DNA of 64,000 nucleotides from Candidatus Woesearchaeota archaeon (GTDB lineage Archaea; Nanobdellota; Nanobdellia; Woesearchaeales; JACQSR01). The position numbers were made by a program, and so were the translations under genes. This document shows positions 14,975-59,275 of the stretch, piece by piece. The stretch is from contig JACQSR010000008.1 in assembly GCA_016211215.1 (NCBI GenBank), forward strand, positions 6,546 through 70,545. The letters are read 5' to 3'. Under the pieces are notes generated by a model, which was not told the origin of the DNA, made no database searches, and saw nothing but the letters and a program-made list of their open reading frames with translations. Positions within the stretch are counted from its first letter, which is position 1, and the number at the start of each line of letters is the position of its first letter.

Positions 14975-15055
14975 CTTATTTTTCCAAAGTTTTAAATAGA
15001 AATTGTCACTACTTTGTGTCATAAAGGGGGTTTCTATAGTATTTGAGGCACAAAC

Positions 15056-16753: not shown

Positions 16754-16867
16754 GTGGTATAAGTTATTAACCATTATAGTAGAGTGAAAAAAACGAAACA
16801 TTTATAAAGGCTCCGGGATTAGTTACCTCAAAATAACGCTCAAAAACAATAACATGGGGGAATATGC

Positions 16868-40641: not shown

Positions 40642-43600
40642 TTATTCTGTTGTTGTAACATCATAGGTTGTCACGCCGGCATTCTGACGGACGTACCATT
40701 CGCCTTCAATGCAGGTGTCTTCCACAAGGATGTCATCAAGGTTATCACCGCTTTCAAACTGCACCCAGGAATCGTTGATGCCGTTGTTTCCGCAGCACTT
40801 TGCATAGCCTGAGTTTCCGGCATAGGATGTTGAGTAGCAGAATGTTTCATTGTGGATGTCGCACACGCCCGCATTTAATCCGGCTTCAAGAACACCCATA
40901 ATATTGCACAGGCATGAATTGTTATCGGGGTTCAATCCCTGCGCGAGGCATCCGTCTTCCACGCAGGTCTTCAGAGGGTAATAGCAGGCGGAATTTTCAA
41001 CGCAGCTGTCCTGCTCTAAGTCACAGTCAATGCAGGCGCAGGATTCTCCGGGGTCGCATGGGCCATTGAAATCACCCACTATCGGGACAGTGTAGATGCT
41101 GCCGCCAAACCTGAATCTCATGTCTTCAGGACCTTCGTCATTGGAATTCTTTAAACGGAATTCTGAAACAGACGCGTTGTATAACCCTATTGTGTCAATG
41201 CCATCGCCGTTCCAATCGCCTGCAACGGGAAATTCGTCCATAGGCACGCCGCTGCCGAAAACAATCTCCAAGCTGGACGATTCAGAGACTCTTAGTATGA
41301 ACTTTCTTTCGCCGTAAACATAAACCCCCGGCTTATCCTTTCCATCACCGTTCCAATCCCCTATGACAGGCAAACCCGCTGAGCTGAGCGGTATTGAAAT
41401 TTCCAAGTCAGCGCCACCTTCTGAATTGGAATTCCTGAGGTAGAAAACTCCGTCCAAAATATTCATTATTCCAATAGTGTAGTATCCGTCTCCGTCCCAG
41501 TCTCCTGCAATCGGCCACAAGTATGCCCTGTCGGCAGCCGGGTCCGGATTGTAGGTAAATGACAAATATGCCTGTCCCGAATCATCGCTAAAGGAGAATG
41601 TTCTGGAAGATTCGTTGTATAATCCCACTGTGCTTATTCCATCGCCGTCCCAGTCTCCGCTTATAGGCGTCAAATCATTAGGGTTAACATCGCCAAAACT
41701 GAACGTCTGGTCTGAAGAACCAGCAGTGTTTGAGTCTCTCAGATAAAATTTGCCCTCAAGGAGATTATACAGCCCAATGGTATCGACACTATTATCATCA
41801 TCGTTGCATCCCAAATTCCCGCCGCAATTGCCGCAGTCAGAACAGCACTTCCCGTCCTCGCATAACGTTGTTCCGGCTATGCATGGCTTGGTGCACAGTT
41901 CAAGCTCAGGATTGCAGGAAGCACCGTATATGCATGTGTCATTCTGCAGACTGCAATCACTGCAATCGCACCCCTCTCCAGTTTCGCAAATGCCATTTTG
42001 AATGTCGTTTATGCAGCCGGGGTATTCAGAGCCGCAGTCTGAACTGCAGCTGTATAACTGGGTGGTTGAGTTGTAGCATAAAGTTGTTCCTGCAGTGCAT
42101 GGAGGCCCGTCAACGCACGTTTTTACGCCGTAATCGCAAACTAACCCTGATGCACAGCTGTCCTGCTGTCCATTGCAGTCATCACAGTCGCATGACTCCC
42201 CTTCATCGCAGCCTGAAGTTCCGCCGTTTACAGCGCTAATACATCCCAGGTTATTGTTTCCGCAGTCGGACTGGCAGGTTCCGTCCGAGCACAATGTTGT
42301 TCCAACGGGACATTGGGGGCCGTCAACGCAGATTCCTGCAAGGTAGTCGCATGACAAGCCATCCAAACAGGAGTCCTGCTCGCTGTCGCAATCGGAGCAT
42401 GTGCAGCTTTCACCCACTTCGCAGGCTGAATCATAATCACAGGGCGCAAATCCGGTATCGCATGTGTAGCAATTGTAGCAGCAATCTCCCGTAGTGCACA
42501 ATGTTTTACCGGCATCGCAAAGCTCAGGGGCGCAGTTGGGGTCTACGGGATTTGCTCCTCGCGGACAGTCTTCATCGCAGATTAAATCATCTGAAGCATT
42601 GCAGCAGTCTCCTGCAATAGGTGTGCAATTCCCGCAGTCAGGGTCATAATCCTGCTGGCAGTTGACATCGCATACAGTGTCGTTTTCCGGCAGGCAGCAG
42701 TTATCAGGGGTGTTTTCGCATCCAATACAATCAGGGTCTATTAAAGGAACACAATCGGTATCGCAGATGTAATCCAAAGTTTCATTGCAGCAGTCATTCG
42801 GCATTGGCGTGCAATTTGGCGGGCAATCGGGGTCAACACCTGAATCGCAGTTGGGGTCGCATTGGTTGGGAGTATCATCAGTATCATCGCAGCAGTCATC
42901 TGCTGTCGGAAGGCAAGTAGTTGAACAATCAGGGTCTTTTCCTGCAGGGCAGTCTGTATCGCAGCCATTATTGCCGAGGTCATTGCAGCAGTTTCCCGGT
43001 GTTGGAAGGCAGTTGGTGCAATCGGGGTCTGCTACTTCGGTGCAGTCGGGGTCGCAGATGCCGGATGAATTTGAGGAGCAGCATCCGTCTGCCAAGCCTG
43101 TGCAGTATCTGCAGGTTGAGATGTTTAAGCCGCAATCATTGCATCCAAGAGCCCCATAGTCAAAGCCCAAATCCGTGCATGAATTGCTGCCATCCCCAAA
43201 TAGCAGGATGTTGTTCACAGTTTCGCATTCTTCATTAGCGTCAATTATTCCATCACCGCAGGTTGCAGCCCGAGTGCAGCCCGAGGTGTCCACAATGCAG
43301 TCTGTACCGCATGATAATGCGCCGCCACTAAAACTATCAAAGTCAGTGCATGCAAGGCCGCCAAGCTGAGTGCCATCGCATTGTTCTCCAAGGTTGATGG
43401 CTCCATTGCCGCATGCTCCCGGAGTTATGCCTGTGCATAAGCTTACGTTTATCAGGCATTCATTTTCATAATCAGCCGGAATGCACGATAAAGTTCCTCC
43501 AAGATAAGTATCAAAGTCGGTGCATTGGTCAGAGCCTGCGCCATAGATTGGCTGACCGGTTAATATGTTGAAATCGCATTGCTCAGCCGGGTCAATAATG

Positions 43601-46485
43601 CCATCACCGCAGGTTGCTGCCCTGGCGCAGTATGTTGTATTGAAGCCGCATGCGTCGCATTTTAATGTCCCGCCTGTGAACGTGTCAAAATCATTGCAGG
43701 TTAAGCCCCTGAGATTTGAGCCGTCACATTCCTCGCCTGTCTCAAGTATTCCGTTGCCGCAGAAAGAATTGCAGCCTGTTGTGTTCAATATGCATGTATT
43801 GTGATAACACGAGAGGGTTCCATCATAAAATCCTGCTTCAGCGCAACTGCCAACAGCACCAAAAACGCCTGCCCCTAAAGCATCGAAATCGCATTGCTCT
43901 GGAGAGTCCACATACCCGTCACCGCAGAAAATATCATGACAACCGCTTGTATCAAATGCGCATGTCTGGGTGTTGCATTTCAAAGTCCCAACATCGAAAT
44001 CCAGTTCCTGGCAGGTGTCTGTGTCGCCGAAAATGTAATCTCGGCCTGAAAAGGAAAAGGGCGCGATATCTGCAAATCCAGGGGTGTTTGAGTTTCTAAG
44101 GCGGAATGTGCTGTCTGAAGGCCTGTAAACCCCGATTGTGTCTATGCCATCTCCATTCCAGTCACCTGCAAGGGGTACATCATCTGCATTGCCAAAATCT
44201 ACATTTATATCCGGATTTCCGGCAGTATTGGAATTTCTGAGCCTGAAGCTTATTCCGTGACGAACTCCTACCGTATCAACACCATCTTTATTCCAATCTC
44301 CAATCACCGGCAGATCTCCGGATGTGCCATAAATAAATCCAACAATTAGTTCTTCTGTGTCTGCATTTACATTCTTTAGATAAAATTCGCTTGTTGACGG
44401 CCTGTAAACCCCGATTGTGTCATCACCATCTCCGTCCCAGTCGCCTACAACTGGAATGTCCCCCGCTACACCATAAGCAACCTGTATGTCCGGATAGCCA
44501 GCATTGTTTGTGTTTCTTAGCATGAAAGTGTTTGTCAACGGGGCGTAAATCCCAATTGTATTAGTTCCATCGCCGTTCCAGTCTCCGACAACAGGAACAT
44601 AGGTTTGAACTCCATAGTTAATCGTTAATTCCGGGCTTCCGGGTGTGTTTGAGTTTCTCAGGAGGAAGTTCATGGAGTTTTGAGGGTCGTTCGGAATTGG
44701 CTTGTAGAGTCCAATTGTGTCTATGCCATCATTATTCCAGTCGCCTGCAACGGGGAATAGGTTATAATAATCGCAATCTTCATTTGGGTCTAAGTATTGG
44801 TCTCCGCATACGCTTTCCTCGCATTTTGGAGTGGTTGAATTCCACCAGCACCCTAAATTGCAGTTATCGCCTGTGCAAGATAACTCATTTGTATAGTTGC
44901 CGCATTCGGCTCCAGTGCAGTCTGTGCATCTGTTTGGCCATATTAGACTGTAAACAAAGAGGCAATTCTGTCCAGCACAATCAACCGTGCATTCCTGGTA
45001 ATCGCAGAAATTCCAGACTCCATTGCCGCAGTCATCGCATGAGGTGCAGATGCACGCAGTGTCTGGCTTGCAGTCTGGGTTGTCGCAGTTGGGGCAGCCG
45101 TTTGAGGAATTTATTTCAGGACATTGAGGAATAGTATTAGGGCACTGGTCGCAGTAGTTGCTTATGCCGTCCATATCAGAGTCAAAGCTAATCCCCCCCG
45201 GAAAAGATGCATCAACAGTTATTGTAAATGTATCCTGGGCAGTCAGACCTCCGGTATCCCTTACCTGAACTGTAACATCAGAAGTTCCCTCCTGGCATGA
45301 CTCTCCTGGAGCACGGGCAGGCACAGAGCAGCTAAGATAATTCTGGTCAGCTGAAACCTGGCAATTCACAAGCGCGGGGTTTGTTTGGCTGACAAGGGTG
45401 AATGAAAGCTCGGAGGGCAAATCCTCGTTATCATTAGCTGAATTGCGCAAGTTGACAAAACCGGGATACGTCTGCCCTGAACCCGCAGGAGCGTTTACGT
45501 CCGTGATGGTTATAGTGGGCGGAGTATTTTGAACAACATTCACTGCTGTTGGCCCGCAAGTCTGCCCGAACCACCTAACATTTTCCTGAAGCATTTTCCA
45601 CCTGCTTGAATATGTTCCGGGTGTTAAAGGCGCAGTAATGCCAAACTCGAATGTATGCTGCTGGCCTGGTGCAACATTCGCAGAAACCCTGTCCCTTGCG
45701 ATACCCCACCGAAAATTGTCCTGAGGGTCCTGGGAGCCAAGCCTGTAGTTTGCTGCATCCGTCCATGTTGTACTCCCTGTGTTTTTCATCGTGACTGAAA
45801 CTGACTTCGTGGAGCCTGTTGAAATTGAAGCCGGTATGGTGTTGCTTACGCACTGGGAATCATCCGTAATTGGTGTATAGTCTACAAGGAGATATACCGG
45901 ATAGCCGCCGGAATCACCGCCTGTTGTTGTTGCACTCATAAAATAATAACTTGTAAGCTCGGGATATCTCCAAATCCTAAATGAGGATACCCAATTTGGG
46001 TTGATTACTGCATTATTTTTATCCAGCACAATGTCTTTGTAACCTTCGGAACTGCACACCAGGGTTCCAACTTTTGGCTTAAGGACCGTCCATTGACATG
46101 CGCCAGTTGCAGGGATGTACGGATTAATCGAGTCTATGTTAAGGGAGGTTGCAGTTGTTGTAGGCCACTCGTTTGGATTTGGACCTACAAACTTCTGGCA
46201 GTAAATCCTCAGCGTAAGGGAGTTCAGGGTGAATGCATCGGGCAGGGATGAAGTATCAAACTGTACAAAACCTTCGGTAAGCTCATTCTCACTTGGAGTA
46301 TATCTTGCCTGTATGCGCTGGCATCCATTTATGCTGAGAGTGCTCCCGGCAGTGCCTGTGCACCATCCACCGCCACTGCACGAAGCAGCATTCTGTATCT
46401 GGACAAAATCTGCATAAACCCCAGAAGTCAAGATAACTAACGCAAGAACAAGTATTGCAAACCTCGCCTTTTTCATCCACACCAT
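40642..46485 (-). CDS. giant (1947 aa) secreted cysteine-rich modular surface protein with FG-GAP/VCBS-like repeat blocks
   Basis: Sec signal MKKARFAILVLALVILTSGVYA/DF. NBR1-FW-like Ig domain (TMKNTGSTTW..RWKM..RWFG). Ig-like domain (PPTITITD..TFTITVDA). TSP3-like DSDMDGISNYCDQCPN. Several Cys-repeat families. Two blocks of GDW(N/D)GDG.DT.G.Y repeats. Own TATA (RC of GCTTTTAAATAACT at ~46519-46532). Confidence 0.9.
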   Translation of the reverse strand: MVWMKKARFAILVLALVILTSGVYADFVQIQNAASCSGGGWCTGTAGSTLSINGCQRIQARYTPSENELTEGFVQFDTSSLPDAFTLNSLTLRIYCQKFVGPNPNEWPTTTATSLNIDSINPYIPATGACQWTVLKPKVGTLVCSSEGYKDIVLDKNNAVINPNWVSSFRIWRYPELTSYYFMSATTTGGDSGGYPVYLLVDYTPITDDSQCVSNTIPASISTGSTKSVSVTMKNTGSTTWTDAANYRLGSQDPQDNFRWGIARDRVSANVAPGQQHTFEFGITAPLTPGTYSSRWKMLQENVRWFGQTCGPTAVNVVQNTPPTITITDVNAPAGSGQTYPGFVNLRNSANDNEDLPSELSFTLVSQTNPALVNCQVSADQNYLSCSVPARAPGESCQEGTSDVTVQVRDTGGLTAQDTFTITVDASFPGGISFDSDMDGISNYCDQCPNTIPQCPEINSSNGCPNCDNPDCKPDTACICTSCDDCGNGVWNFCDYQECTVDCAGQNCLFVYSLIWPNRCTDCTGAECGNYTNELSCTGDNCNLGCWWNSTTPKCEESVCGDQYLDPNEDCDYYNLFPVAGDWNNDGIDTIGLYKPIPNDPQNSMNFLLRNSNTPGSPELTINYGVQTYVPVVGDWNGDGTNTIGIYAPLTNTFMLRNTNNAGYPDIQVAYGVAGDIPVVGDWDGDGDDTIGVYRPSTSEFYLKNVNADTEELIVGFIYGTSGDLPVIGDWNKDGVDTVGVRHGISFRLRNSNTAGNPDINVDFGNADDVPLAGDWNGDGIDTIGVYRPSDSTFRLRNSNTPGFADIAPFSFSGRDYIFGDTDTCQELDFDVGTLKCNTQTCAFDTSGCHDIFCGDGYVDSPEQCDFDALGAGVFGAVGSCAEAGFYDGTLSCYHNTCILNTTGCNSFCGNGILETGEECDGSNLRGLTCNDFDTFTGGTLKCDACGFNTTYCARAATCGDGIIDPAEQCDFNILTGQPIYGAGSDQCTDFDTYLGGTLSCIPADYENECLINVSLCTGITPGACGNGAINLGEQCDGTQLGGLACTDFDSFSGGALSCGTDCIVDTSGCTRAATCGDGIIDANEECETVNNILLFGDGSNSCTDLGFDYGALGCNDCGLNISTCRYCTGLADGCCSSNSSGICDPDCTEVADPDCTNCLPTPGNCCNDLGNNGCDTDCPAGKDPDCSTTCLPTADDCCDDTDDTPNQCDPNCDSGVDPDCPPNCTPMPNDCCNETLDYICDTDCVPLIDPDCIGCENTPDNCCLPENDTVCDVNCQQDYDPDCGNCTPIAGDCCNASDDLICDEDCPRGANPVDPNCAPELCDAGKTLCTTGDCCYNCYTCDTGFAPCDYDSACEVGESCTCSDCDSEQDSCLDGLSCDYLAGICVDGPQCPVGTTLCSDGTCQSDCGNNNLGCISAVNGGTSGCDEGESCDCDDCNGQQDSCASGLVCDYGVKTCVDGPPCTAGTTLCYNSTTQLYSCSSDCGSEYPGCINDIQNGICETGEGCDCSDCSLQNDTCIYGASCNPELELCTKPCIAGTTLCEDGKCCSDCGNCGGNLGCNDDDNSVDTIGLYNLLEGKFYLRDSNTAGSSDQTFSFGDVNPNDLTPISGDWDGDGISTVGLYNESSRTFSFSDDSGQAYLSFTYNPDPAADRAYLWPIAGDWDGDGYYTIGIMNILDGVFYLRNSNSEGGADLEISIPLSSAGLPVIGDWNGDGKDKPGVYVYGERKFILRVSESSSLEIVFGSGVPMDEFPVAGDWNGDGIDTIGLYNASVSEFRLKNSNDEGPEDMRFRFGGSIYTVPIVGDFNGPCDPGESCACIDCDLEQDSCVENSACYYPLKTCVEDGCLAQGLNPDNNSCLCNIMGVLEAGLNAGVCDIHNETFCYSTSYAGNSGYAKCCGNNGINDSWVQFESGDNLDDILVEDTCIEGEWYVRQNAGVTTYDVTTTE
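41068..41805 (-). repeat. FG-GAP/VCBS-like repeat block 2 (about 5 units, cysteine-free), aa 1561-1806
   Basis: ISGDWDGDGISTVGLY, IAGDWDGDGYYTIGIM, VIGDWNGDGKDKPGVY, VAGDWNGDGIDTIGLY and IVGDFNG. Confidence 0.75.
41806..42531 (-). repeat. three and a half ~70-aa repeats C.(A/V)GTTLC ... GE.C.C.DC...QDSC..GL.CDY....CVDGP, aa 1319-1560
   Basis: QCPVGTTLCSDGTC..GCDEGESCDCDDCNGQQDSCASGLVCDYGVKTCVDGP and its neighbours. The fourth unit stops after PCIAGTTLCEDGKCCSDCGNCGGNLGC. Confidence 0.7.
42532..43101 (-). repeat. six ~27-34-aa six-cysteine repeats C.P...(D/N)CC(x7-9)CD.(D/N)C(x4-8)DP(D/N)C, aa 1129-1318
   Basis: For example TNCLPTPGNCCNDLGNNGCDTDCPAGKDPDC, PPNCTPMPNDCCNETLDYICDTDCVPLIDPDC and IGCENTPDNCCLPENDTVCDVNCQQDYDPDC. 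Confidence 0.75.
43102..43938 (-). repeat. five intact ~50-60-aa CG(D/N)G...E(E/Q)CD cysteine repeats (myxococcal cysteine-rich-repeat-like), aa 850-1128
   Basis: FCGDGYVDSPEQCD, FCGNGILETGEECD, TCGDGIIDPAEQCD, ACGNGAINLGEQCD and TCGDGIIDANEECE. Each is followed by C.DFD...G(T/A)L.C...C......C. Confidence 0.7.
44032..44757 (-). repeat. FG-GAP/VCBS-like repeat block 1 (5 units, cysteine-free), protein aa 577-818
   Basis: Units begin VAGDWNNDGIDTIGLY, VVGDWNGDGTNTIGIY, VVGDWDGDGDDTIGVY, VIGDWNKDGVDTVGV and LAGDWNGDGIDTIGVY. Each is followed by F.LRNSN..G. Confidence 0.75.
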
Positions 46486-46540
46486 CTTTTTTAAGGTTCT
46501 TTAGAATTTCCCGGCTTTTGCTTTTAAATAACTTTCCCTT

Positions 46541-47464
46541 TCAGCCCAATGAAGGCACGGTGAAATCTATTTTGCCTGCACCTGAGCACTTGCTTTCGTC
46601 GTTCGCCCAGGAAATGTCCTTTTCACCGGAAACAAGGCGGATAGTTTTGGCGGCCCTGCAATCATCGACAGAAATTTTCCTTGAGCCGGAGATAGTGCCA
46701 TGCGACTGGCCGTCTATGAACAGGTTGCCGGCAAGCTTCTGGCCCGTGTCTTCGGCGTAGAAGTCAAGAACCACCTCAGTTATTCCCACTTCCTTCCTCT
46801 TGATAACATAGGTTATTTTTTTTGAGGAGCAATCGCCGGGATATGCATCAGCAATGTAAACTTCATCACCCTGCTTGAGCGCAAGCTGGCTGGCGTTGCT
46901 GCAGAAGTCAAGCGGCAGGCCGGAAAAATAATCACCGGAGAACTCCCCTATTTCGGCACCGTTGTAGAGAACCTTGCCGTACATAAGGTCGTTTGTCTCT
47001 GAATCCACAAAAGCAATTTTTGGCGGAATGGTTCTGTTGTAGAAAAATATGGCCACGATGGAAAGTATCAGCACTATTGCAATAACAAGCAGCCAAAACT
47101 GGGGCTTTTTCCAGTAAGACTTTTTTTCAATGCCAACCGGGTTCTTTGCAGGAACTTCCTCGGCGATTTTTTTGGGCTCTGCATCATCAGACTCCGCTTC
47201 TTCATCAGCACTCTGCTGTGTTTCCTGCTTTTCCTCTTCTTCGGACTCCTGGGTTTCTTCATCTTCCTGCGTTTTTTCGTCTTCCTCGAGGGTTTCAAAG
47301 ACAAAGGAACGGGTTGGGGTTTCCGGAATTGGCTCCGGGGGCTCTATGGGCTCTTTGGATGCCTGCAAAAAAAATTCGTCAATCAGCTTTTTCTTTGAAC
47401 CCCACTCCTTATCAGATGAGTCCTGCGCCGGCTTTTCCTCTTCAAGAATGTCATCTTCCACCAT
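46541..47464 (-). CDS. single-pass membrane protein with acidic cytoplasmic N-terminus and extracytoplasmic domain
   Basis: Glu/Asp-rich first ~115 aa. TM FWLLVIAIVLILSIVAIFFY. Lies between the peptidase gene and the giant gene on the same strand. Confidence 0.55.
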   Translation of the reverse strand: MVEDDILEEEKPAQDSSDKEWGSKKKLIDEFFLQASKEPIEPPEPIPETPTRSFVFETLEEDEKTQEDEETQESEEEEKQETQQSADEEAESDDAEPKKIAEEVPAKNPVGIEKKSYWKKPQFWLLVIAIVLILSIVAIFFYNRTIPPKIAFVDSETNDLMYGKVLYNGAEIGEFSGDYFSGLPLDFCSNASQLALKQGDEVYIADAYPGDCSSKKITYVIKRKEVGITEVVLDFYAEDTGQKLAGNLFIDGQSHGTISGSRKISVDDCRAAKTIRLVSGEKDISWANDESKCSGAGKIDFTVPSLG

Positions 47465-47485: not shown

Positions 47486-48373
47486 CTATATAAATGTTTT
47501 TAATAGCAGGAGTATATAATTCCTAAATACCAGGGCGCAAATGAATGCCAAAAAAAAGCTTGGCACAAAGGGTATGCCCTCCTTTACCATTATGCGCCTA
47601 ATCTTGCCGTTCATTTTGAGCCTTAGCAGGGCTTTAATCTGCCTTTTCTCAATCCCCAAATCCTTTGGCCCGCATATCCTTTTTCCGTTGATTATGACCT
47701 CTTTGGCAATCCAATCTCCTTCGGTAAGCTGCTCGGGCTTTACCCATTTTTTCATGCACCCGTTTTCCATCGAGCGTATAAAGACCCAGAGGGGAAAAAC
47801 CAAAACAAGGGCAGACGGAAGTATCAGAAGGGCCAAACGCATATCCTGAGTTGAGAGAAATGCCAAAATAAAAAGAAAAATGGCGAGCAGGGAGGCTGAA
47901 GCCGAGATATAGATAAAATTTTTTCCTGCAACAATCTTTTTCGCTTCGCGCTTGACTGCCCTGAAGTTTTTAATGCCAACCGCAATGCTCCATACAACGC
48001 CGTATATTGCGCCAACAAGCAGCAGGCTTACCAGAAAAGACAGCATGAAAGTATCCATTGAAGCCCTTATGCCAAACAATGCCCCAAGGCCCATGAGAAG
48101 CTTTGAATCTCCGCCGCCCCACTGGCCTGAGTAGTACATCCCATAGGATACAAGCACAAACACCAGCAGCCCGACAATGCTGTAGCCTATGAAGCTAAAG
48201 TCATGGTAAATCAAGGAAAGCAGTAAGTTTATACCTAACCCGGTGCCGATTAGCGCAAAATTCAGGGAGTCCGGAACTTCCCTTGTCCTGATATCCGATA
48301 TAGAAGCCACCAAAAGCACAACAAAAGCTATTGCAATAAGGATTATTTCTCCAACCGCCATGACCTTCCCCAC
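47486..48373 (-). CDS. A24-family prepilin/preflagellin peptidase (PibD/FlaK-like)
   Basis: First catalytic Asp region VASISDIRTREVPD. Second in WGGGDSKLLMGLG (GxGD). Multi-TM, with an extra C-terminal soluble domain. Confidence 0.8.
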   Translation of the reverse strand: MGKVMAVGEIILIAIAFVVLLVASISDIRTREVPDSLNFALIGTGLGINLLLSLIYHDFSFIGYSIVGLLVFVLVSYGMYYSGQWGGGDSKLLMGLGALFGIRASMDTFMLSFLVSLLLVGAIYGVVWSIAVGIKNFRAVKREAKKIVAGKNFIYISASASLLAIFLFILAFLSTQDMRLALLILPSALVLVFPLWVFIRSMENGCMKKWVKPEQLTEGDWIAKEVIINGKRICGPKDLGIEKRQIKALLRLKMNGKIRRIMVKEGIPFVPSFFLAFICALVFRNYILLLLKTFI

Positions 48374-50026: not shown

Positions 50027-50533
50027 ATGGCAGTGGAGCAGTGCCTCGTCATTATAAAGCCCGACGGGATGGCAAAAGGGCTTACAGGGGACATAATACG
50101 CGAGCTTTCAAGGACAGACCTTGTGATGGCTGGCGCAAAGGTTGTGCAGGTTACGAGAGAGTTGTCCGAAGAGCACTACCAGCACCTGAAGGACAAGGAA
50201 TTCTTCAACGACCTGATAAAATACATAATGGGCGATTTCCATCACACCAAGTCTGTATTGGCATTGGTGTATGAAGGCGAAAAGGCAACCGAGAAAATAA
50301 GGAAGATATGCGGGGCAACCCATCCTGAAAAGGCTGAGCCAACCTCAATCAGGGGAAAATACGGCAGGGTTCATTCCGAAACAGGAGTTTTCGAGAATGT
50401 GATACACGCATCCGAGAATGCGAAAGAGGCTGAGCGCGAGATTAAGCTGTGGTTCAGGCCGAATGAACTGATACACACGATATTCCCGGTGGAAAGAAAA
50501 AACCAGAAGATGGATTCATTCTTCTGGAAGTGA
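50027..50533 (+). CDS. ndk: nucleoside diphosphate kinase
   Basis: CLVIIKPDG, active-site NVIHASEN. Conserved archaeal position after rpl24e. Confidence 0.95.
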   Translation: MAVEQCLVIIKPDGMAKGLTGDIIRELSRTDLVMAGAKVVQVTRELSEEHYQHLKDKEFFNDLIKYIMGDFHHTKSVLALVYEGEKATEKIRKICGATHPEKAEPTSIRGKYGRVHSETGVFENVIHASENAKEAEREIKLWFRPNELIHTIFPVERKNQKMDSFFWK

Positions 50534-51790
50534 CTGCTTCAGGCGCTTTATCACTTCATCTATCTTCAGCATCTCCTCTTTGCCCGTTTTCATGTCCCTG
50601 AGAGTCATCTTTTCTTTTTCCAGCTCCTTTTTGCCGATTAATATTACGTAGGGTATGCTTAGCGAATTTGCATAATCGAGGTTCTTGCTTGGACCTCTGC
50701 CGGAAAAGTCCATATCTGAATGTATACCGGAGCTGCGGAGCAAGTTCAGGATTTTCAGGCACACCTCGGCAGTGTTTATGGGTATTATGTAAACCCCTGA
50801 AACAACCTTTTTCCCTATTTTTCTTTTTTCACACACTGCATCGTGAATCCTGTCAAGCCCGAAGCTTATGCCCACTGCAGGATAATCCCCACGGCCAAGA
50901 AGCGAGGAAATCATCCTGTCATACCTTCCGCCTGCGCATATCGTGGACTTCACGGAGCTTTCCCTTGCAGCAACCTCAAACACTGTTCCGGTGTAATATG
51001 ACAATCCGCGTGCAAGGCTCTGGTCGAATCTTGCATTTACACCAAGGATTGAAAGGAATTTTTCCAGCTCCTCTATTTCCTTAATGCCCTCGCTTTTTTT
51101 CAGCAGCTTTCCAATCTTATCAATGCCCTTCATGGAAAGAACGTCCATTATCCTGGCAATTGCATCGTGGCTAATGCCCTTCCCATGCAGTTCCTTCTCA
51201 ACCTCTGTTGCACCAAACTTCTCAAGCTTATCCACTGAAAGAATAACTGTGTCGTGGCTTTCTTTTTTTACACCGCACCAGTCGAGAAGCTCGTTCAGAA
51301 GCTTGCGGTTGTTGAACCTTATCTCGACATCAATTCCGATGCGCTGAAACGCCTCCGAGGCCAATGAAAGCAGCTCAGCCTCCGCAAGCATGGTTTTTAC
51401 CCCGATAATGTCGACATCGCACTGCATGAACTGCCTGTAGCGCGAGGCGCTTATCGGGCCGTCCCTGAACACATTGCCCATCTGGTACAATTTGACTGGC
51501 ATTTTCATCTGGGAATTCATGCCGATGAATCTTGCAAGCGGCACGGTAAGGTCATACCTCAGTCCCAAATCACGGTTTCCCTGGTCCCTGAACTGGAAAG
51601 ATTCCTTCAGAATTTCTTCTCCTCCGGCGTATTTTGACGAAAGAATTTCGTAGCGCTCTATAACAGGAGTTTCAAACGGGGAAAACCCGTACAGCTCGAA
51701 AACATTTGCAAGCGCATTTTGAATATCATTCCTTACAATCTTTTCCTTTGGAAGAAAATCACGGGTGCCTTTGGCGTTTTGGAGCTCCAT
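50516..51790 (-). CDS. hisS: histidyl-tRNA synthetase
   Basis: GTRDFLP, RYRQFMQCDVDIIG and AGGRYD class II motifs. Starts 14 nt after the hisA stop. Confidence 0.95.
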   Translation of the reverse strand: MELQNAKGTRDFLPKEKIVRNDIQNALANVFELYGFSPFETPVIERYEILSSKYAGGEEILKESFQFRDQGNRDLGLRYDLTVPLARFIGMNSQMKMPVKLYQMGNVFRDGPISASRYRQFMQCDVDIIGVKTMLAEAELLSLASEAFQRIGIDVEIRFNNRKLLNELLDWCGVKKESHDTVILSVDKLEKFGATEVEKELHGKGISHDAIARIMDVLSMKGIDKIGKLLKKSEGIKEIEELEKFLSILGVNARFDQSLARGLSYYTGTVFEVAARESSVKSTICAGGRYDRMISSLLGRGDYPAVGISFGLDRIHDAVCEKRKIGKKVVSGVYIIPINTAEVCLKILNLLRSSGIHSDMDFSGRGPSKNLDYANSLSIPYVILIGKKELEKEKMTLRDMKTGKEEMLKIDEVIKRLKQSLPEE

Positions 51791-51804
51791 AGGTTAAATT
51801 TATT

Positions 51805-52503
51805 TCATTTTCTTTTAAACCTTTCCAAATCCTTCAGCTTAAGCTTGCCTGTGTAGAGCGCCATGCCCAAAACTGAATTAATCCCAAGCTCTTCAAGCTT
51901 TTCGATTTCGTGCATGGAATATATGCCACCTGCGGCCGTGATTTTGTTGTTTGTTGAATTCCCAAGCTTCTGCAATGCTGCCATGTCCGTGCCCTGCATC
52001 ATGCCTTCCCTGTCAACATAGGTGTAGAGAAATTCCGAGCAGTAAGGCTCAAGCTCCCTGATTGCTTCAAGCGCATTAATGCCTGTGCTGCTGCGCCACC
52101 CCTTTATGACTATTTCACCCTTTTTTGAGTCTACCGCAATAATAATCCTGTTTTTCCCTATCTCTGATTTAAGCCTGCCGAGAAAATTTCTGTTTATGCT
52201 GCCATGCCTGAATGCCATGCTGCCTATGATTATTTTTTTTGCCCCGGCATCAATAAGTTCCCTTGCCGTTTTTATGTCACGAATCCCGCCTCCAACCCTG
52301 CACGGAATTTTTTTGCATATCTTCTTTACCATGGCCTTGTTGCTGCCTTCCCCCTTTGCTGCATCCAGGTCTATGACCTGCACTTCAAATCCCCTGAAAT
52401 TTTCCAGGAGATTATCATAGCTGTCCAATTCTATCTTTTTTTTCTCGCCCTGCACAAGCTGGACTACTTTCCCTTTCATCAGGTCTATTGAGGGTATTAT
52501 CAT
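51805..52503 (-). CDS. hisA: ProFAR isomerase HisA
   Basis: [20 protein letters not shown]. Start set at the ATG that forms an ATGA overlap with the hisF stop. The track start is at 52515. Confidence 0.9.
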
Positions 52504-53255
52504 TCTCTCACGCAAATCCCATTTTTCCTGAGGAAAGACTTAACCTGCGCAACGGTGTATTCATTGTAATGGAATATTGAGGCTGCCAGGGCAGCGTCTG
52601 CCTTTCCCCTGCTGAAGACTTCGGCAAAATGGCGCGGGTTTCCTATTCCGCCCGATGCTATTACGGGTATGCTTACTGATTCGCTAACCTTCCTTGTCAG
52701 TTCAATATCGCACCCTTTTTTTGTGCCGTCCCTGTCCATTGAAGTAAGCAATATCTCCCCTGCACCCATTTTTTCAGCTTCCCCTGCCCATTTTACCGCA
52801 TCCAGCTTTGTTTCTTTTCTTCCGCCGTGGGTGTAAACAAGCCATCTTTTTCCCCTTTTCTTTGCGTCAATCGCAACAACAATGCACTGGCTTCCGAATT
52901 TTTTTGAAGCGGCGGTGATTAGGGGGGGATTTTCCACTGCCGCGGTGTTTATTGAAACCTTGTCTGCCCCAGCCCTTAGAAGGGAGGCGATATCATTTAG
53001 GGTTCTAACTCCCCCTCCAACGGTAAATGGTATGAACACCCTGGCAGCAACATTCCTGACAACATCAATCATTATCTTTCTTTTTTCATGCGACGCAGTT
53101 ATATCGAGGAATACCAGTTCGTCTGCAGATTGCGCATCATATTCCCCTGCAAGCCCAACAGGATTTCCCGCGTCCCTTATGCCAACAAACTTTATGCCTT
53201 TCACAACGCGCCCTGCATCAACATCCATGCACACAATGATTCTTTTCGCTAGCAT
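52500..53255 (-). CDS. hisF: imidazole glycerol phosphate synthase cyclase subunit HisF
   Basis: [31 protein letters not shown] and IASGGIG. Start at the internal ATG at 53255, 7-nt overlap with the upstream HAD gene. Confidence 0.95.
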
Positions 53256-53845
53256 AGCTCCAGCAACTCCGACAGGTTTTCTATCCTCTTGTCCGCGTCT
53301 ATCCTGAAGCCGATTGCAAGGCACCCTGCGCTTCTAGCAGATTCTATGTCGTATACAGTGTCTCCCACCATGATTGAGTCCTTGGCAGAAACTTTAAGCC
53401 TCCTGCACGCCTCAAAAGCCACGTCGGGAGCGGGCTTTCCCCTCTTCACCTCGTCCCCCCCAACAATGGCGTCGAAAAACTGGTGCAGCCCCGCTGATTT
53501 AAGGAGAAGCTCCACTATTTTGCGGTGGCTGTTTGAGACAATTGCCGTTTTAATTCTCTTCTTTTTCAGCTCCTGCAGTACAGACTTTGCCTCCGGATTC
53601 ACTTTTATTTTTTTTACAAAATCCGAGAACCTGGAAAAGTAGAACTTAGAAATTTCCGCAACTTCCTCATTTGGGAGGAATCTTGCTGCAACCGTATCAA
53701 AAGACTGGGCCCATGCGTCCCTGTCGAACCTTTCGACTGTAATTTCCTTCCTGCCGAATTTTTTCAGGGATGAATTAAGAACGTCAAACCATGCATCATG
53801 CGAGTCCAGCAGAACCCCGTCCATGTCAAACAGGATTGCCTTCAT
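53249..53845 (-). CDS. HAD-superfamily hydrolase (beta-PGM-like subfamily) embedded in the his operon
   Basis: Motif [46 protein letters not shown] overlap with hisH. Confidence 0.8.
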
Positions 53846-54438
53846 CGGCAGAACCTCTTCAGTATTTCCATGCCCAATTTTCCTGACTTTTCCGGATGGA
53901 ACTGGAATGCGACTATGTTTTTTGACTCAATCCCGGAAACGAATTCACTGCCATAGTTAGTGGTGGTTAAGACTGCCTTCCTGTCCAGTGGATTTGCATA
54001 ATAGGAATGCACAAAGTAAAAATATTTCCCAGATGGCGTGTTGGCGAGTATTCTGGAATCCTTTTTTTTGGATATGGAATTCCAGCCAATATGGGGTATT
54101 TTCATCTTTCCACGGAAGCGGAGCACATTCCCCTTCAGCACGCCAAGACCTTTTACTCCGGGAGCTTCCTCGCTTTTTTCGAACAGAAGCTGAAGCCCAA
54201 GGCATATTCCCAGATAGGGCTTTCCGCCGGAAATTGCATTTTTTATAGGGATTGCCAATTTTCTTTCCCGCAGGACTTTCATTGCCGCGCCAAAATGACC
54301 AACACCGGGAAGTATGATTTTGTCTGCATTCGCTATATCCTTTGGGTTTTTGCTGACCACATATTCAACTGACAAGGATTCAAGGGCATTTGCGACATTC
54401 CTTATGTTGCCTGCGCCATAATCAACCACCACAATCAT
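53842..54438 (-). CDS. hisH: imidazole glycerol phosphate synthase glutaminase subunit HisH
   Basis: [24 protein letters not shown] (nucleophile Cys) and FQFHPEKS. Start at the ATG forming an ATGA overlap with the hisB stop. Confidence 0.93.
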
Positions 54439-55016
54439 ATTCTTCCCTTCGTGCTCGGCAGTCTTTTTACGCGGCCAACAGAACAAGCCATCATCATGGA
54501 CTTTGCAAACGCCTTAAAGACAGCCTCAGCCTTGTGGTGGGGATTCCTTCCGTACGGCATGATTATGTGGATATTGCATTTTAAGCCCTGGGAAAATGCT
54601 ATAAAGAAATCCTCGAGAAGTGCTGTGTCCAAATCGCCTATCTTCTTTGCATCTATGTCCACATCAAACCTTGCATACGGACGCCCGCCTATGTCTATGG
54701 ATACAACTGCAAGGCTTTCGTCCATCGGATATACAAAATAGCCTGCACGCTGGATTCCCTTCTTATTGCCAAGAGCCTTTTCAAACGCCTGCCCAAGCAC
54801 TATTCCCGTGTCCTCAACCAGATGGTGCTGGTCCACGTCCAAATCTCCGCTGGCATTTAGTTTTATGTCAAAGAGCCCGTGCTTTGCGAAAAGCTCAAGC
54901 ATGTGGTCGAGAAAACGGATTTTTGTGCTTATTCTTGAATTCCCCCTGCCTTCAATGCGCAGGGAAATCCCTATGTCGGTCTCCTTCGTTTTCCTCCTTA
55001 TTGTTGCGGACCTCAT
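54435..55016 (-). CDS. hisB: imidazoleglycerol-phosphate dehydratase (monofunctional HisB)
   Basis: [19 protein letters not shown] and [12 protein letters not shown]. 193 aa, with no fused phosphatase domain. Confidence 0.93.
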
Positions 55017-55702
55017 TTTTTCTCGAGAATGGCCGGAAGCTCATTTACGCTTTCTATTACTTCGATGGCGCCGTGCTCCATGAGAAGCGACTTCAGCCCA
55101 TCGTCTTTTGCAACACCTATTGCGGGAATTCCTGCAGTCACTGCCATAGCCATGTCATCAACATTGTCGCCAACATAAACCGCATCCTTGGTGCTGAAGT
55201 GCCTCAGTGCAAGCCTTAATCCGCATGGATTTGGCTTTTTCCTGTCTCCAACATCCTCGGCGCACACGACTATGTCAAAGAAATTTCTTGCGGTGAACTG
55301 CTTGAGCGCAAAATCAGCGTCCTTTTTCGGGCGGCCGGTCACTATGCCAAGCTTGTACCTTGCATAAATCTTCTTTAATGCGCCATAATCAAAGAGCCAG
55401 CGCTCGTTCCTTACAAAACCATCATTCTTGTTTCCCCAGTAGAAGAGCTCAAATTTCCTCTCGACTTCCACAGGCTCCGGATTTTTGCCGCCAAGCTGTA
55501 TTATTTTAAGCGTAAGGTCATAATCATCATTATTTCCTGATTTGTTTTTCAGGCGCTGGATGATGCTTGGGTCTACCGGCCTGCCGAGGAAAAACTCTGC
55601 CGTTTTCTGGATTGCAGCCCTGTAAGAAGCAGATACATCAACCAATACACCGTCCATGTCAAAGACTATTGCTTTCATCTTACCATTTTGTTCCACTTCC
55701 AC
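55013..55702 (-). CDS. HAD-superfamily hydrolase, second copy in the his operon
   Basis: Motif [47 protein letters not shown] overlap with hisB. Confidence 0.75.
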
Positions 55703-55765
55703 TGGCCCTTAAGCACCCAATAGAGCGCGCCAAGGCCTATAATAGATAGTATTGCTATAAGCGCG

Positions 55766-56794
55766 TCATTCAAGGCAATCACCAATGCATTTCATAAGGC
55801 GCTTCATCTGGTCTTTTCTTCCAATAGTTATCCTGACGTAGCCTTTAATGGGGATTCTCCTTATCAGGATGCCTTTCTTCTTCAGGCAGGAGTATAGCTT
55901 TCCAGGGTTATTAAATTTTGCCAATATGAAGTTGGCATGGCCCCCATAGACATAAATTCCTCTTTTTCTCAGGAATTCCACGAGCATGATTTTGTTTTTC
56001 CTGACTTCCAGCACATATTTTCTTGCATGGCCAACATCACTCAATGCTATGCTTCCTATCAGGACAGCAAGGGAATTTACCGAATACGGCGAGCGCACGT
56101 TTTTCATGCAGGAGATGTTGTGCTTATCGGAGAGCAATGTGCCCAATCTTACTCCTGCAATCCCGAATACCTTTGAGAATGACTTCACAACAATGAGGGT
56201 GCGATATTTTTTGATTAAATTGATGCACGAGACACCAGAAAAGTCTGCATAGGCCTCGTCTATAAGCACGGCGGAGTTTTTTGCCTTTTTCAGGATTTTA
56301 ATCACGCCGGACTTTTCCAGCAATGTTCCGGTGGGGTTGTTGGGATTGGCTATTACCACAAGCTTTGTGCTTTTTTTGATTTCCTTCAGTGCTTTTTTTA
56401 GGGGAAAAGAAAAATCGCTTCCGTAGGGAATACTTTTTATTTTTGCGCCTGCAATCTGGGCATAAACCCTGAACATCGGGAACGTAGGTTCCACCATTAT
56501 GACTTCATCGTCCCTGTCAACGAATGTGTCAAACACAGTCTTTATGCCTTCGTCTGCGCCGTTTGAGGGAAGAATGTTTTCAATGCCTGTTTTGAAGTAG
56601 GATGAGAGTTTTTTGAGAAGAGAGGAGTATTCCGGATAAACTGATATGTATTTTGGGCTGAGCTTAATGCTGTTTAATTTCTGCGTTGCGCCATAGAGGT
56701 TTTCATTGAAGTCAAGCCTAAGATAAGCATCCCTTCCCTCTATCGGGGGCCTGTAGGGCTGCATCCCAATTACTGATTTTTTTGGCTTCAGCAT
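55766..56794 (-). CDS. hisC: histidinol-phosphate aminotransferase
   Basis: YPEYS, ANPNNPTG, and the PLP-lysine region SFSKVFGIAGVRLG. Confidence 0.9.
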   Translation of the reverse strand: MLKPKKSVIGMQPYRPPIEGRDAYLRLDFNENLYGATQKLNSIKLSPKYISVYPEYSSLLKKLSSYFKTGIENILPSNGADEGIKTVFDTFVDRDDEVIMVEPTFPMFRVYAQIAGAKIKSIPYGSDFSFPLKKALKEIKKSTKLVVIANPNNPTGTLLEKSGVIKILKKAKNSAVLIDEAYADFSGVSCINLIKKYRTLIVVKSFSKVFGIAGVRLGTLLSDKHNISCMKNVRSPYSVNSLAVLIGSIALSDVGHARKYVLEVRKNKIMLVEFLRKRGIYVYGGHANFILAKFNNPGKLYSCLKKKGILIRRIPIKGYVRITIGRKDQMKRLMKCIGDCLE

Positions 56795-58041
56795 TTTCTA
56801 ACCTCGACTGAGCGCTTATGGGCTGAAAGGCTCTCTGCATCTGCCAGTGCAGTTATGACTGGCCTTAATTTCCTAAGCCCCGATGCCGACAGCTTCTGAA
56901 CTGATGGCATTTTCACGAAGTCAAGCACGCTGATTCCAGACCTGAATTTTGACGCCTGCATTGTCGGAAGGACATGGGAGGGGCCCATCGCATAATCTCC
57001 AGCGGCCTCGCATGTAAACTCTCCGAGGAATATTGCTCCTGCGTTGCTTATTTTTCCGAGGATACTTTCCTCAAAAAGCTCCAGGTGCTCGGGCGCAAAA
57101 TCGTTGATGAATGCAACTGCATCACTCCTGTTTTTTGCAAGGATTATTGCGCCATAATTTTCAATTGATTGCGCTGCAATGCTGTTTTTGGCTAGTTTCT
57201 TCAACTGGATTTCCACTTCACGTGAAACCTTATTCGCCAATTTCACGCTTGTTGTAACAAAAATGGCAGACGCGTATTTGTCGTGCTCCGCCTGTGCAAG
57301 CATGTCTGCCGCTATGTAAGTTTCATTTCCCCTTTCGGCGTAAATCACCACCTCTGAAGGGCCTGCGAGGAAGTCAATGCCAACATCCCCGTACAATAAT
57401 TTCTTTGCGGCAGTTACATATATGTTTCCGGGACCCACAATCTTGTCCACCTTGGGAATGGATTCCGTGCCGTATGCCATTGCGGCTATCGCCTGCGCGC
57501 CGCCGACCCTGAAAATCCTATTGGCACCGGCCAATTTCGCCGCGGCAATTACCGCATCACCGGCCTTTGGGGGGGTGCATACAATTATTTCCTTCACGCC
57601 AGCGCATTTTGCGGGAACAACCGTCATCAGAACAGAGCTTGGCAGCGGATAATTTCCGGCAGGAATATAGCACCCAACCCTTTCTATGGGCCTTACAATC
57701 TGCCTTATCTCAATGCCATTTTCCCTTAATTTCATTTCTTTTGGCATCTGCATCCCTGAGAATTTTTTTATCCTGCCGATTGAAACCTTCATTGCATTTA
57801 GCAGTTTTTTGTCAACATTCTTGCATGCCTTTCTGATTTCAGAATCTGAGAATTCCATGTTCTTTTCGCTTAATTCAAAATTGTCAAATTTTGCTGAGAA
57901 CTCAAAAACAGCGCCATTGCCGCGCTTCTTTACCCCACTGATGATTATTTTTGCGCCTTCAATTGCCTTTTCAAGCTCGCCCGAAGAGCGCTGCTTAATC
58001 CTGTCCAGGGCTTCCCTATCGTTAATGGCGATAATTCTCAT
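56788..58041 (-). CDS. hisD: histidinol dehydrogenase
   Basis: GPGNIYV, AQAEHD and [13 protein letters not shown] motifs. Confidence 0.95.
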
Positions 58042-58907
58042 AGTATTATCTTGTTCAGGGCGTACTCGACAATGCCTTCCGCGCCTGCCTCCTTCAGCTT
58101 TGGTATTAACTCGCGGACGAATTTTTCGTCAATGATGGTGTTGAGGGCAACCCAGTTTATGTCGCTTAAGTCAGATATGGTGGGCTTGTTCAATGCCGGC
58201 AGAATCTTCAGGACTTTCGGAAGCTCCTTTTTGCTGACATTCATCATCAGCCCAACCTTTTCTTCCGCGAGAAGCGCTCCAAGGAGAAGCATCCTTATGT
58301 TCTCTATCTTTTTCCTCTTCCACGGATTTTTCCATGCCTCAGGGTTTGCGATGAACTTGGTGTTTGATTCCAGGATTATGTCAACAATGCGTAGGTTGTT
58401 TGCGCGCAATGACGAGCCCGTTTCGGTTATTTCAACAATTGCGTCCGCAAGCTCAGGAGGCTTTACCTCGGTTGCGCCCCAGGAGAATTCAACTTCGGCA
58501 TTCACATTGTGCTTTTTCAGGTACTGCTTTGTGAGGTTTACTGCTTCCGTTGCTATCTTCTTGCCCTCCAAATCCCTTACGCTCCTGATTTTGCTTTCAA
58601 AAGGAACAGCGAGAACCCATTTTACCCTTCCAAGGCCCTGCTTTGAATATATTAAATCGGCAATAGCTACCACATTTGAGCTGTTTTCCAAAATCCAGTC
58701 ATGGCCTGTCAACCCGCAGTCCATGTGGCCGTTTTCAACATAGCGCGACATTTCCTGCGCCCTAACCATTATGCATTCTATTTCCTCATCGTTGATTTTT
58801 GGGTAATAGGAGCGCTCGTCAACCTGTATTGAATATCCTGCCTTCCTGAAAATCCTTACGGTGGATTCCTGAAGGCTGCCCTTTGGTATGCCGAGCTTGA
58901 GTTTCAT
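58038..58907 (-). CDS. hisG: ATP phosphoribosyltransferase, long form
   Basis: [16 protein letters not shown]. 289 aa from the ATG that forms an ATGA overlap with the hisI stop. The track start at 58991 lies inside hisI. Confidence 0.9.
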
Positions 58908-59275
58908 GCCCTTTTGTACACCTTTTTCGGATTGAAAACTCTTTTTCCCATTGTTTTTAATTTTCCGTTTTTCAGTTTCCTGTAGAAGCACGATTTATAG
59001 CCTTTGTGGCAGGCTGCATTGACCTGCTCCACTTTCAGCAGGATTGAATCATTATCGCAGTCAACATATATTTCCCTTACCTTCTGGATGTTTCCTGATT
59101 CCTCGCCCTTTCTCCACAGTTTATTTCTGGACCTTGAGAAATAGCATGCCTTCCCTTCCCTTAATGTTGTTTCGAACGCCTCCCTGTTCATGAAGGCAAG
59201 CATTAAAACTTCGTTGGTCTTGAAGTCCTGCGCTATTGCAGGAATTATTCCGTTAAGCTTGCTGAAATTCATCAT
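58904..59275 (-). CDS. hisI: phosphoribosyl-AMP cyclohydrolase (HisI only, no HisE domain)
   Basis: [40 protein letters not shown] and [14 protein letters not shown] at 59275 is preceded by AGGGGGA, and the TATA (RC of TATTTAAA, 59309-59316) is about 35 nt upstream. The track TTG at 59305 is too close to the TATA. Confidence 0.9.

Follow-up and report, generated by a model that had tools for sequence, protein, structure and literature searches.

A giant cysteine-rich protein with nested five-bladed propellers, a candidate calcium-dependent adhesin of a Woesearchaeota archaeon

An intact gene for an exported, cysteine-rich giant protein

We analysed a 64,000-nucleotide stretch of contig JACQSR010000008.1 of Candidatus Woesearchaeota archaeon (the 64-kb window, hereafter the window), in which an earlier note, made from the DNA letters alone, had pointed to a gene for a giant, secreted and extremely cysteine-rich mosaic protein. 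An uninterrupted minus-strand open reading frame (ORF) of 1947 codons was indeed found at 40642..46485, and all features of this gene given below lie on the minus strand. The encoded product (the giant protein) has the same sequence as 'hypothetical protein HY638_01225 [Candidatus Woesearchaeota archaeon]' at NCBI, and the gene thus belongs to a DPANN archaeon. The NCBI version is 1944 residues long and starts at the second methionine. We identified three positional orthologues: P0002 (Candidatus Nanoarchaeia archaeon SMAG_U8158), P0157 (Candidatus Woesearchaeota archaeon nzgw43) and P0158 (Nanoarchaeota archaeon SAG AM-311-D13). The first ATG (46485) is not conserved. The orthologues begin at an MKK that corresponds to M4 here (ATG at 46476), and hence a 1944-residue product starting at M4 appears more likely.

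By direct count the giant protein contains 164 cysteines (8.42%), which matches the hand count of about 164 (~8%) made earlier, and 5 histidines. The 59 other ORFs of the window contain 1.13% cysteine on average. The mature protein (~204 kDa, pI ~4.05) is strongly acidic. Its sole hydrophobic segment is the signal peptide MVWMKKARFAILVLALVILTSGVYA/DF (residues 1–25, 46411..46485), and no transmembrane segment was found elsewhere. The Sec signal with a VYA/DF junction that had been read from the DNA is borne out by the mature N-terminus, which is common to P0002 (...SSAVFA/DFVQIQNAAS), and leaders of the Sec-type n-h-c form were recognised in all four orthologues by reading, with no dedicated predictor. 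A pilin-type (class III) signal was considered and rejected, also by reading, since MKKA/RFAILV... has R at +1 and the c-region VYA/DF is of the standard A-x-A-like kind.

Propellers nested in cysteine-rich repeats

Three types of small cysteine-rich repeats make up much of the protein. Six repeats of the DUF4215 type (PF13948, the Pfam form of the Myxococcus cysteine-rich repeat) come first. The family is not listed in a scan of the whole protein and was obtained by scanning residues 824–1128 alone (E = 3.1e–7, 31 bits versus a cutoff of 27, four stretches). Repeat 1 is split: its N-terminal half (CGDQYLDPNEDCD..., residues 560–575, 44761..44808, 2 cysteines) and its C-terminal half (residues 823–853, 4 cysteines) together make a standard 6-cysteine repeat. 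This C-terminal half and repeats 2–6 occupy residues 823–1127 (43105..44019). Then come six DPDC repeats (residues 1128–1318, 42532..43104; pattern C.P...(D/N)CC......CD.(D/N)C....DP(D/N)C), and every DUF4215 and every DPDC repeat contains exactly 6 cysteines. Both the six myxococcal-type repeats and the six DPDC repeats had been predicted, and both arrays were recovered in full by repeat parsing, the former with the pattern CG(D/N)(G/Q).

CVDGP repeats 1–3 and the N-terminal half of repeat 4 follow at residues 1319–1563 (41797..42531). The number of four repeats given in the earlier note holds (pattern C.xG(T/K)TLC...GE.C.C.DC...(Q/N)D(S/T)C), although the literal string 'CVDGP' is present in just two of them. 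The C-terminal half of repeat 4 (CDPGESCACIDCDLEQDSC...CVEDG, residues 1809–1848, 40942..41061) matches the second half of repeats 1–3 (E = 1e–5 to 0.024) and, in P0002, follows directly on the first half. The protein ends in a C-terminal domain (residues 1849–1947, 40645..40941, final residues ...TTYDVTTTE) that is conserved in P0002, P0157, P0158 and the more distant relative P0160. The DPDC repeats, the CVDGP repeats and the C-terminal part gave no Pfam match, and a profile of the cysteine-rich cassette matched no PDB sequence; the DPDC and CVDGP modules are thus essentially undescribed.

The two interruptions are occupied by beta-propellers. Propeller 1 (residues 576–822, 44020..44760) is nested in a loop of DUF4215 repeat 1, between CGDQYLDPNEDCD with its 2 cysteines and TCQELDFDVGTLKCNTQTCAFDTSGC with its 4, and propeller 2 (residues 1564–1808, 41062..41796) is nested inside CVDGP repeat 4. 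Since both DUF4215 repeat 1 and CVDGP repeat 4 are interrupted in this way, the modules do not follow one another in simple linear succession as the earlier note had laid them out. Propellers nested in loops of small cysteine-rich repeats, and varying among orthologues, are an unusual and informative architecture.

From the strict periodicity of the cysteines, their even numbers, their complete conservation (see below) and the near absence of histidine we infer that the ~164 cysteines would form disulfides, roughly 80 in all.

A large family of five-bladed propellers

Both propeller blocks are free of cysteine and carry five GD(W/F)(N/D) units, with a DxNxDG loop in each blade. AlphaFold2 modelled residues 572–826 (66-sequence alignment) with high confidence (predicted local distance difference test (pLDDT) 92.0, predicted template-modelling score (pTM) 0.88) as 20 strands forming a five-bladed propeller; propeller 2 belongs to the same five-repeat family. 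Two cysteine-free FG-GAP/VCBS-like blocks of five units each had been proposed. The blocks and their units are there, but the FG-GAP_3 (PF13517) hidden Markov model (HMM) gave 17.0 and 17.3 bits on them, below the Pfam cutoff of 26.9. With five modelled blades rather than seven, and with that HMM below threshold for both blocks, the label 'integrin-like' given to the protein appears too strong.

When propeller 1 was compared with the PDB using Foldseek, the top match was 9oee_A, the lectin propeller of UmbA4 in complex with teichuronic acid (E = 4.3e–9, template-modelling (TM) score 0.55). Later matches include ITFG2, the GlcNAc-binding fungal lectins PAL/PVL/AAL2, Bap1 of V. cholerae, TcB of Tc toxins and integrin alpha; the FG-GAP-type propellers in the list have TM-scores of about 0.28–0.55. 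A search of the fold against viral structures gave no significant match.

At the sequence level we found at least 4090 member clusters of the propeller domain family at E ≤ 1e–5. The domain is ~245 residues long and almost always C-terminal. Among the 120 best matches listed, the fusion partners are CAP (16), CHAP (5), M10 (4) and M23 (3) domains, with a few Amidase_2 and subtilase domains. Such a C-terminal position on secreted proteins, wall hydrolases among them, typifies modules for targeting or binding, which the domain may well be. The DxNxDG loops, the fold neighbours and these domain associations together suggest that the propellers are calcium-dependent lectins. The five-repeat module itself (GDWNGDGxDTxGVYRP...F.LRNSN..G..D..F.FG; 44020-44760 and 41062-41796 in the window, and P0037-P0156) constitutes a discrete five-bladed domain that is largely unannotated in Pfam.

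Propeller 2 is ~43% identical to propeller 1, no closer than to family members in unrelated proteins, and its origin by recent internal duplication was rejected on these grounds. The boundary of propeller 1 is circularly shifted relative to P0002 (residues 573–585 and 815–822): a strand of ~12 residues, YNLFPVAGDWNN, lies on the N-side here, and its P0002 counterpart, IPVVGDWDGIG, lies on the C-side. The closing blade would therefore be completed from opposite ends in the two orthologues.

The N-terminal modules

Four modules separate the signal peptide from the first DUF4215 repeat. The N-terminal domain (residues 26–207, 182 residues, 6 cysteines, 45865..46410) is predicted to be all-beta and holds a faint CBM96/DNRLRE-like motif, GFVQFDTSSLPDAFTLNSLTLRIY. 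The Pfam CBM96 model (PF24517) scored 12.5 bits against a cutoff of 26 (E = 0.13), and hhalign against three genuine CBM96 domains aligned 28 columns only, at 68% probability. A word-indexed homology search with this domain alone returned nothing, its own parent protein included; the tool lists only proteins of comparable length, so the negative is a weak one. The AlphaFold2 model built from a two-sequence alignment had a pLDDT of 32. Modelling of individual modules, proposed in the earlier note, thus worked for propeller 1 (92.0) and did not for this domain.

The next module is an NBR1-type (FW) immunoglobulin (Ig)-like domain (residues 208–320, 45526..45864). Its assignment, already made from the DNA, is secured by a PF16158 (N_BRCA1_IG) match at residues 231–309 (E = 1.6e–7, 32.2 bits versus a gathering cutoff of 28) and by BLAST, which found 35–56% identity to PF16158-bearing proteins and dozens of multi-copy homologues in secreted mosaic proteins. 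A second Ig-like domain, Ig2 (residues 321–428, 45202..45525), matches C4_MG1 (E = 0.009) and He_PIG (E = 0.049) weakly. Beyond it lies a cysteine 'knot' (residues 429–559, 44809..45201) with 21 cysteines by count, which has a homologous region in P0157 and gave no Pfam match. Within the knot, DSDMDGISNYCDQCPN (residues 435–450, 45136-45183) fits the consensus DxDxDGxx(D/N)xxDxCP of the thrombospondin type-3 (TSP3) motif by eye, as the earlier note had seen. HMM support is missing: PF02412 and PF18884 did not match residues 427–574 up to E = 10, and the motif is single.

A lineage-restricted cassette with variable heads

A search among 5.8 billion clustered proteins returned a single near-full-length homologue, P0002, which is 70% identical. 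It aligns throughout except for a clean deletion of ~241 residues, located between ...CGGNL(G/P)C and NG(P/V)C..GESC, that corresponds to propeller 2 and brings both halves of CVDGP repeat 4 back together. All 164 cysteine positions are kept in P0002 (164/164), with no exchange between cysteine and another residue in either direction. Identity varies strongly between modules: it is 87% for the DUF4215 and DPDC repeats, 79–82% for the N-terminal and NBR1-type domains and 55% for the knot, and Ig2, at 42%, is the most divergent module.

The cassette formed by the DUF4215, DPDC and CVDGP repeats and the C-terminal domain is 79, 57 and 50% identical to that of the giant protein in the three orthologues (aligned cassette), and the DPDC+CVDGP region 75, 63 and 51%. 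Nearly every cysteine of the cassette is invariant across the four orthologues, and the extreme C-terminus ...TTYDV.TT(E) is kept. In P0157 the N-terminal domain is different and a canonical FG-GAP propeller (PF13517, E = 2e–14) sits at the same DUF4215 loop. The head of P0158 is unrelated and contains true tandem TSP3 repeats, and this orthologue is without a propeller. Variable heads of this kind are as expected for a recognition protein, which these proteins may be.

To what extent is the cassette found elsewhere? When the DPDC+CVDGP region was searched exhaustively with HMMER against 1.84 billion representative proteins, 52 clusters were returned. The seven of these that carry an organism name are all archaeal (six Nanoarchaeota/Nanoarchaeia/Woesearchaeota and one labelled 'archaeon'). 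All 52 are cysteine-rich (3–15%, mostly 7–13%), and most members with a complete N-terminus have a signal-peptide-like leader. When 185,579 species genomes were scanned, the full cassette was found only in the three genomes with positional orthologues, whereas its DUF4215 part is also present by itself in Myxococcota, bacteria of the candidate phyla radiation (CPR) and other DPANN archaea. Loci with DUF4215-type repeats (L009-L053) are mainly from Myxococcota, and also from the CPR lineages Peregrinibacteria, Peribacteria and Dojkabacteria and from Pacearchaeota and Iainarchaeum; their distribution suggests that predatory or social bacteria have this repeat in common with symbiont lineages of small genome size.

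None of the relatives has a known function. No full-length homologue of known function was found; the relatives that came up are the three uncharacterised positional orthologues, and where an NCBI name exists it is an automatic, domain-based one. An NCBIfam scan of the giant protein gave just a meaningless AlkB match, and a phmmer search of the PDB sequences with the whole protein gave no match. The literature on cysteine-rich or giant surface proteins of DPANN archaea and Woesearchaeota yielded no description of such proteins. The earlier note had not recognised the module combination as a described one.

Genomic neighbourhood

A transcription factor B recognition element (BRE)/TATA-like promoter element, AAAGTTATTTAAAA, lies at 46522..46535 on the minus strand, 36 nt 5' of the first ATG and 45 nt 5' of the MKK start. 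Four genomes keep its core AAAG.TATTTAAA unchanged in the corresponding spacer 5' of the giant gene, which strengthens the claim that the gene has a TATA box of its own.

The gene order in these four genomes is a divergent undecaprenyl pyrophosphate (UPP) synthase gene, a Peptidase_A24 gene, a gene for an acidic single-pass membrane protein of 307–360 residues, the giant gene and two convergent HIT genes, and the region from L7Ae through UPP synthase, peptidase and giant gene to the HIT genes is collinear in related genomes. Both upstream neighbours were correctly named in the earlier note. The prepilin (type IV leader) peptidase gene (47486..48373, minus strand; PF01478, E = 3.6e–16) occupies the same position in all four genomes. 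A functional link between the peptidase and the giant protein is not supported beyond this collinearity; P0160 and another CVDGP-containing distant relative, P0162, are encoded outside the syntenic slot, in other genomic contexts, and therefore such a link is not general. The immediate upstream neighbour in the window (46541..47464, minus strand) encodes the acidic membrane protein, here 307 residues long. It has no Pfam match; a conserved motif at its N-terminus and a variable poly-acidic linker are combined with a single transmembrane helix and a ~165-residue outside domain that contains 4 invariant cysteines. Its gene immediately precedes the giant gene in three of the four genomes. We speculate that it could be a membrane partner or anchor of the giant protein. 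In the fourth genome, the single-amplified genome (SAG), an extra gene lies between the two (L003 8460-10004) and overlaps the giant start by 4 nt; its 514-residue product has a signal peptide, is cysteine-poor and ends in a C-terminal transmembrane anchor.

Several other features of the window are worth recording. A cluster of genes for exported proteins on the plus strand (12866-18214) encodes a 702-residue Beta_propel protein (PF09826, E = 4e–167), a 565-residue protein with weak CARDB/MG2/Ig-like matches and a 448-residue protein with a signal peptide and a weak ABC-2 membrane match. On the minus strand, 617-4845 encodes two membrane proteins resembling an aerotolerance-operon pair, of 801 (VWA + GATase1_like) and 608 residues (BatA + VWA_2 + DUF7406-7408). 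A run of histidine biosynthesis genes with HisS (~50500-59000, minus strand) adjoins a ribosomal protein cluster and is collinear in a relative (L001 1-5859); these genes represent a biosynthetic capacity above that of the most reduced DPANN genomes. Scans of the window for tRNA genes and Rfam families were empty.

Comparison with known systems

The positional orthologues share with the giant protein the syntenic slot, the C-terminal cassette ending in TTYDV.TT, the cysteine skeleton and the Sec-type signal. They differ from it in the head and the inserts: P0002 lacks propeller 2, P0157 combines another head with an FG-GAP propeller, and P0158 combines its TSP3 head with no propeller.

The closest structural counterpart of propeller 1 is found in UmbA of Streptomyces umbrella toxins (PDB 9oee). 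UmbA propellers are lectins that bind glycopolymers of target cells in a species-specific manner (PMC13274773), and 12 five-bladed propeller families are listed in the UmbA repertoire (PMC13274773, Cell 2025). Both systems are secreted and present exchangeable, diversified binding modules on a constant scaffold. However, the UmbA4 propeller has six blades, versus five modelled for propeller 1, and the likeness is structural only. UmbA proteins also contain a trypsin-like domain and form complexes with UmbB and the UmbC toxins, neither of which is seen in the giant protein or its neighbours. In sum, the giant protein showed no sequence or profile link to UmbA-type lectins, no trypsin-like domain and no umb-like neighbours.

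The FG-GAP/integrin-alpha propellers, PVL/PAL/AAL2 and Bap1 (E-values of 3e–4 to 5e–3, TM-scores no higher than 0.28–0.49) likewise have DxNxDG-type loops in each blade and extracellular adhesion or lectin roles, but seven or eight blades instead of the five modelled here. With the Myxococcus cysteine-rich repeat proteins (DUF4215, PF13948 / TIGR02232) the giant protein has in common the six CG(D/N)G..E.CD repeats of 6 cysteines each; it differs in that one repeat hosts a nested propeller and in that DPDC and CVDGP repeats follow the array.

Large surface proteins have been proposed to mediate host attachment in DPANN and CPR episymbionts, an example being SPEARE of Nanohaloarchaeum antarcticus. 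SPEARE-type proteins are likewise very large exported mosaics of adhesion-type modules in a small-genome DPANN archaeon. The general kind, a very large, modular, exported adhesin-like protein of a DPANN archaeon, is already familiar, and what sets the giant protein apart from the SPEARE type is its 8.4% cysteine and its DPDC/CVDGP repeats.

Function and alternative explanations

On balance we lean towards an adhesin or recognition protein. Within that reading, the giant protein would most probably attach to sugars on cell surfaces as a calcium-dependent adhesin: the best solved match of propeller 1 is a lectin that binds a target-cell-wall polymer, the stalk cassette is conserved while heads and inserted propellers differ, and DUF4215 repeats are also present in an adhesive-trail protein of a diatom. 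According to this model, a ~204-kDa protein would be exported by the Sec route to the surface or the exterior of the Woesearchaeota cell. Its C-terminal two thirds would form a rigid stalk of small repeats with 6 to 14 cysteines (6 DUF4215, 6 DPDC and 4 CVDGP), held by roughly 80 disulfides. The conserved C-terminal domain, in which the stalk terminates, is probably a candidate cell-proximal attachment domain that would hold on to the cell envelope and is possibly docked on the co-conserved 307-residue membrane protein. The stalk would display exchangeable modules, namely the N-terminal head (the beta-rich domain, the NBR1-type Ig and the second Ig domain) and the two five-bladed calcium-loop propellers, which would bud from loops of stalk repeats. 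The propellers are most likely lectins for glycans or glycopolymers of another cell's surface or of particles, and the variable distal modules as a whole may recognise the surfaces of partner cells or particles.

A number of observations weigh against such an adhesin. No membrane anchor was recognised, neither a transmembrane segment nor a PGF-CTERM-like sorting signal (by reading; there is no hydrophobic C-terminal stretch), so the protein could simply be released. The structural similarity to lectin propellers is moderate (TM-score 0.45–0.55) and blade numbers differ; a profile of the propeller family matched no PDB chain at E ≤ 1; and FG-GAP-type propellers bind proteins too. The N-terminal domain, the presumed tip, matched no family confidently. 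Many Woesearchaeota live in anoxic habitats, where ~80 extracellular disulfides would be surprising, and no oxidative-folding genes were seen in the window. Finally, the conservation of the neighbourhood may reflect the mere collinearity of closely related genomes.

Alternatively, the protein could be a structural component of the envelope or matrix, i.e. a secreted scaffold that cross-links the cell's own S-layer, glycocalyx or biofilm matrix in the manner of Vibrio Bap1/RbmC, with the cysteine-rich repeats lending mechanical and protease resistance. Bap1 is among the structural matches of propeller 1, the stalk is highly conserved (87% identity in DUF4215 + DPDC), a diatom adhesive-trail/matrix protein contains DUF4215 repeats, the gene is single-copy in a stable housekeeping neighbourhood, and the absence of a detected anchor fits a matrix protein as well. 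We nevertheless consider this unlikely, because close relatives have exchanged or lost heads and propeller inserts, which fits changing external ligands better, and because the distal modules diverge the most (Ig2 42%, knot 55% identity). A different role for the cysteines, as metal ligands in an extracellular metal-binding or sequestering protein (MopE-like or metallothionein-like, for Cu, Zn, Fe or sulfide minerals, in a reducing habitat), is very unlikely. It would account for 8.4% cysteine in a very acidic protein, Woesearchaeota are commonly anaerobic, and PF11617, described in Pfam as a 'putative metal-binding motif', is present in relatives in the family, one of them being named 'MopE-related' at NCBI. 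But the giant protein itself has no PF11617 match and just 5 histidines, and the 6-cysteine periodicity, CC doublets, repeats of ~30–50 residues, even totals and positional conservation are the signature of disulfide-knotted repeats; the cysteine-free propellers and Ig domains would also be left unexplained.

An offensive or predatory effector scaffold, comparable to the spokes of umbrella toxins or to Tc/RHS toxins and targeted to a prey or host cell by its lectin propellers for the delivery of a toxic or lytic activity, is brought to mind by the UmbA4 and TcB propellers among the top structural matches and by the frequent fusion of the propeller family to wall hydrolases. Pfam and NCBIfam detected no enzymatic or toxin domain in the giant protein, though, and the window holds no immunity-like or partner toxin genes next to or downstream of it. 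The C-terminus, the variable part in polymorphic toxins, is conserved among the orthologues. We regard an effector role as highly improbable; a polymorphic toxin of the RHS/Tc-like kind in particular was rejected, given the conserved C-terminus, the lack of any RHS or toxin match in Pfam and the HIT hydrolase genes downstream. There is hardly any chance that the ORF is an artefact of assembly or annotation (chimeric, repeat-collapsed or a pseudogene). The source is a metagenome-assembled genome, and the coding sequence yields a protein full of repeats, but at the DNA level the repeat copies are only 60–87% identical with no genuine tandem array, a divergence that makes repeat-collapse misassembly unlikely. 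Moreover, all 164 cysteines are conserved in P0002, and intact orthologous ORFs are present in three other assemblies, among which is a single-cell genome. The genes of P0158 (1503 residues) and P0157 (1924 residues) are complete, and the third (1670 residues) has its 3' end cut by the contig edge.

Significance

How DPANN archaea recognise and attach to partner cells is largely unexplained, and the candidate proteins are usually labelled 'large hypothetical proteins'. The giant locus offers a concrete candidate, with well-delimited modules and two lectin-like propellers of a huge unannotated family. The four orthologues, with a common stalk and differing heads and inserts, form a natural comparison series. 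The five-bladed GDWNGDG propeller, with thousands of members mostly on secreted wall hydrolases and CAP proteins, merits annotation as a domain family of its own. A biochemical question is also raised, namely how a secreted protein with 164 strictly conserved cysteines is folded in a generally anoxic archaeal group.

A bolder and rather doubtful proposal is that the locus is a syntenically fixed 'recognition cassette' of Woesearchaeales, in which a disulfide stalk of DPDC and CVDGP repeats would be held at the membrane, via its C-terminal domain, by the acidic single-pass protein, and the partner range would be reset by swapping loop propellers and heads. If true, the lectin bet-hedging of umbrella toxins or of phage receptor-binding proteins would have an analogue in archaea, and the proposal would imply an unrecognised capacity for extracellular oxidative folding in DPANN archaea.

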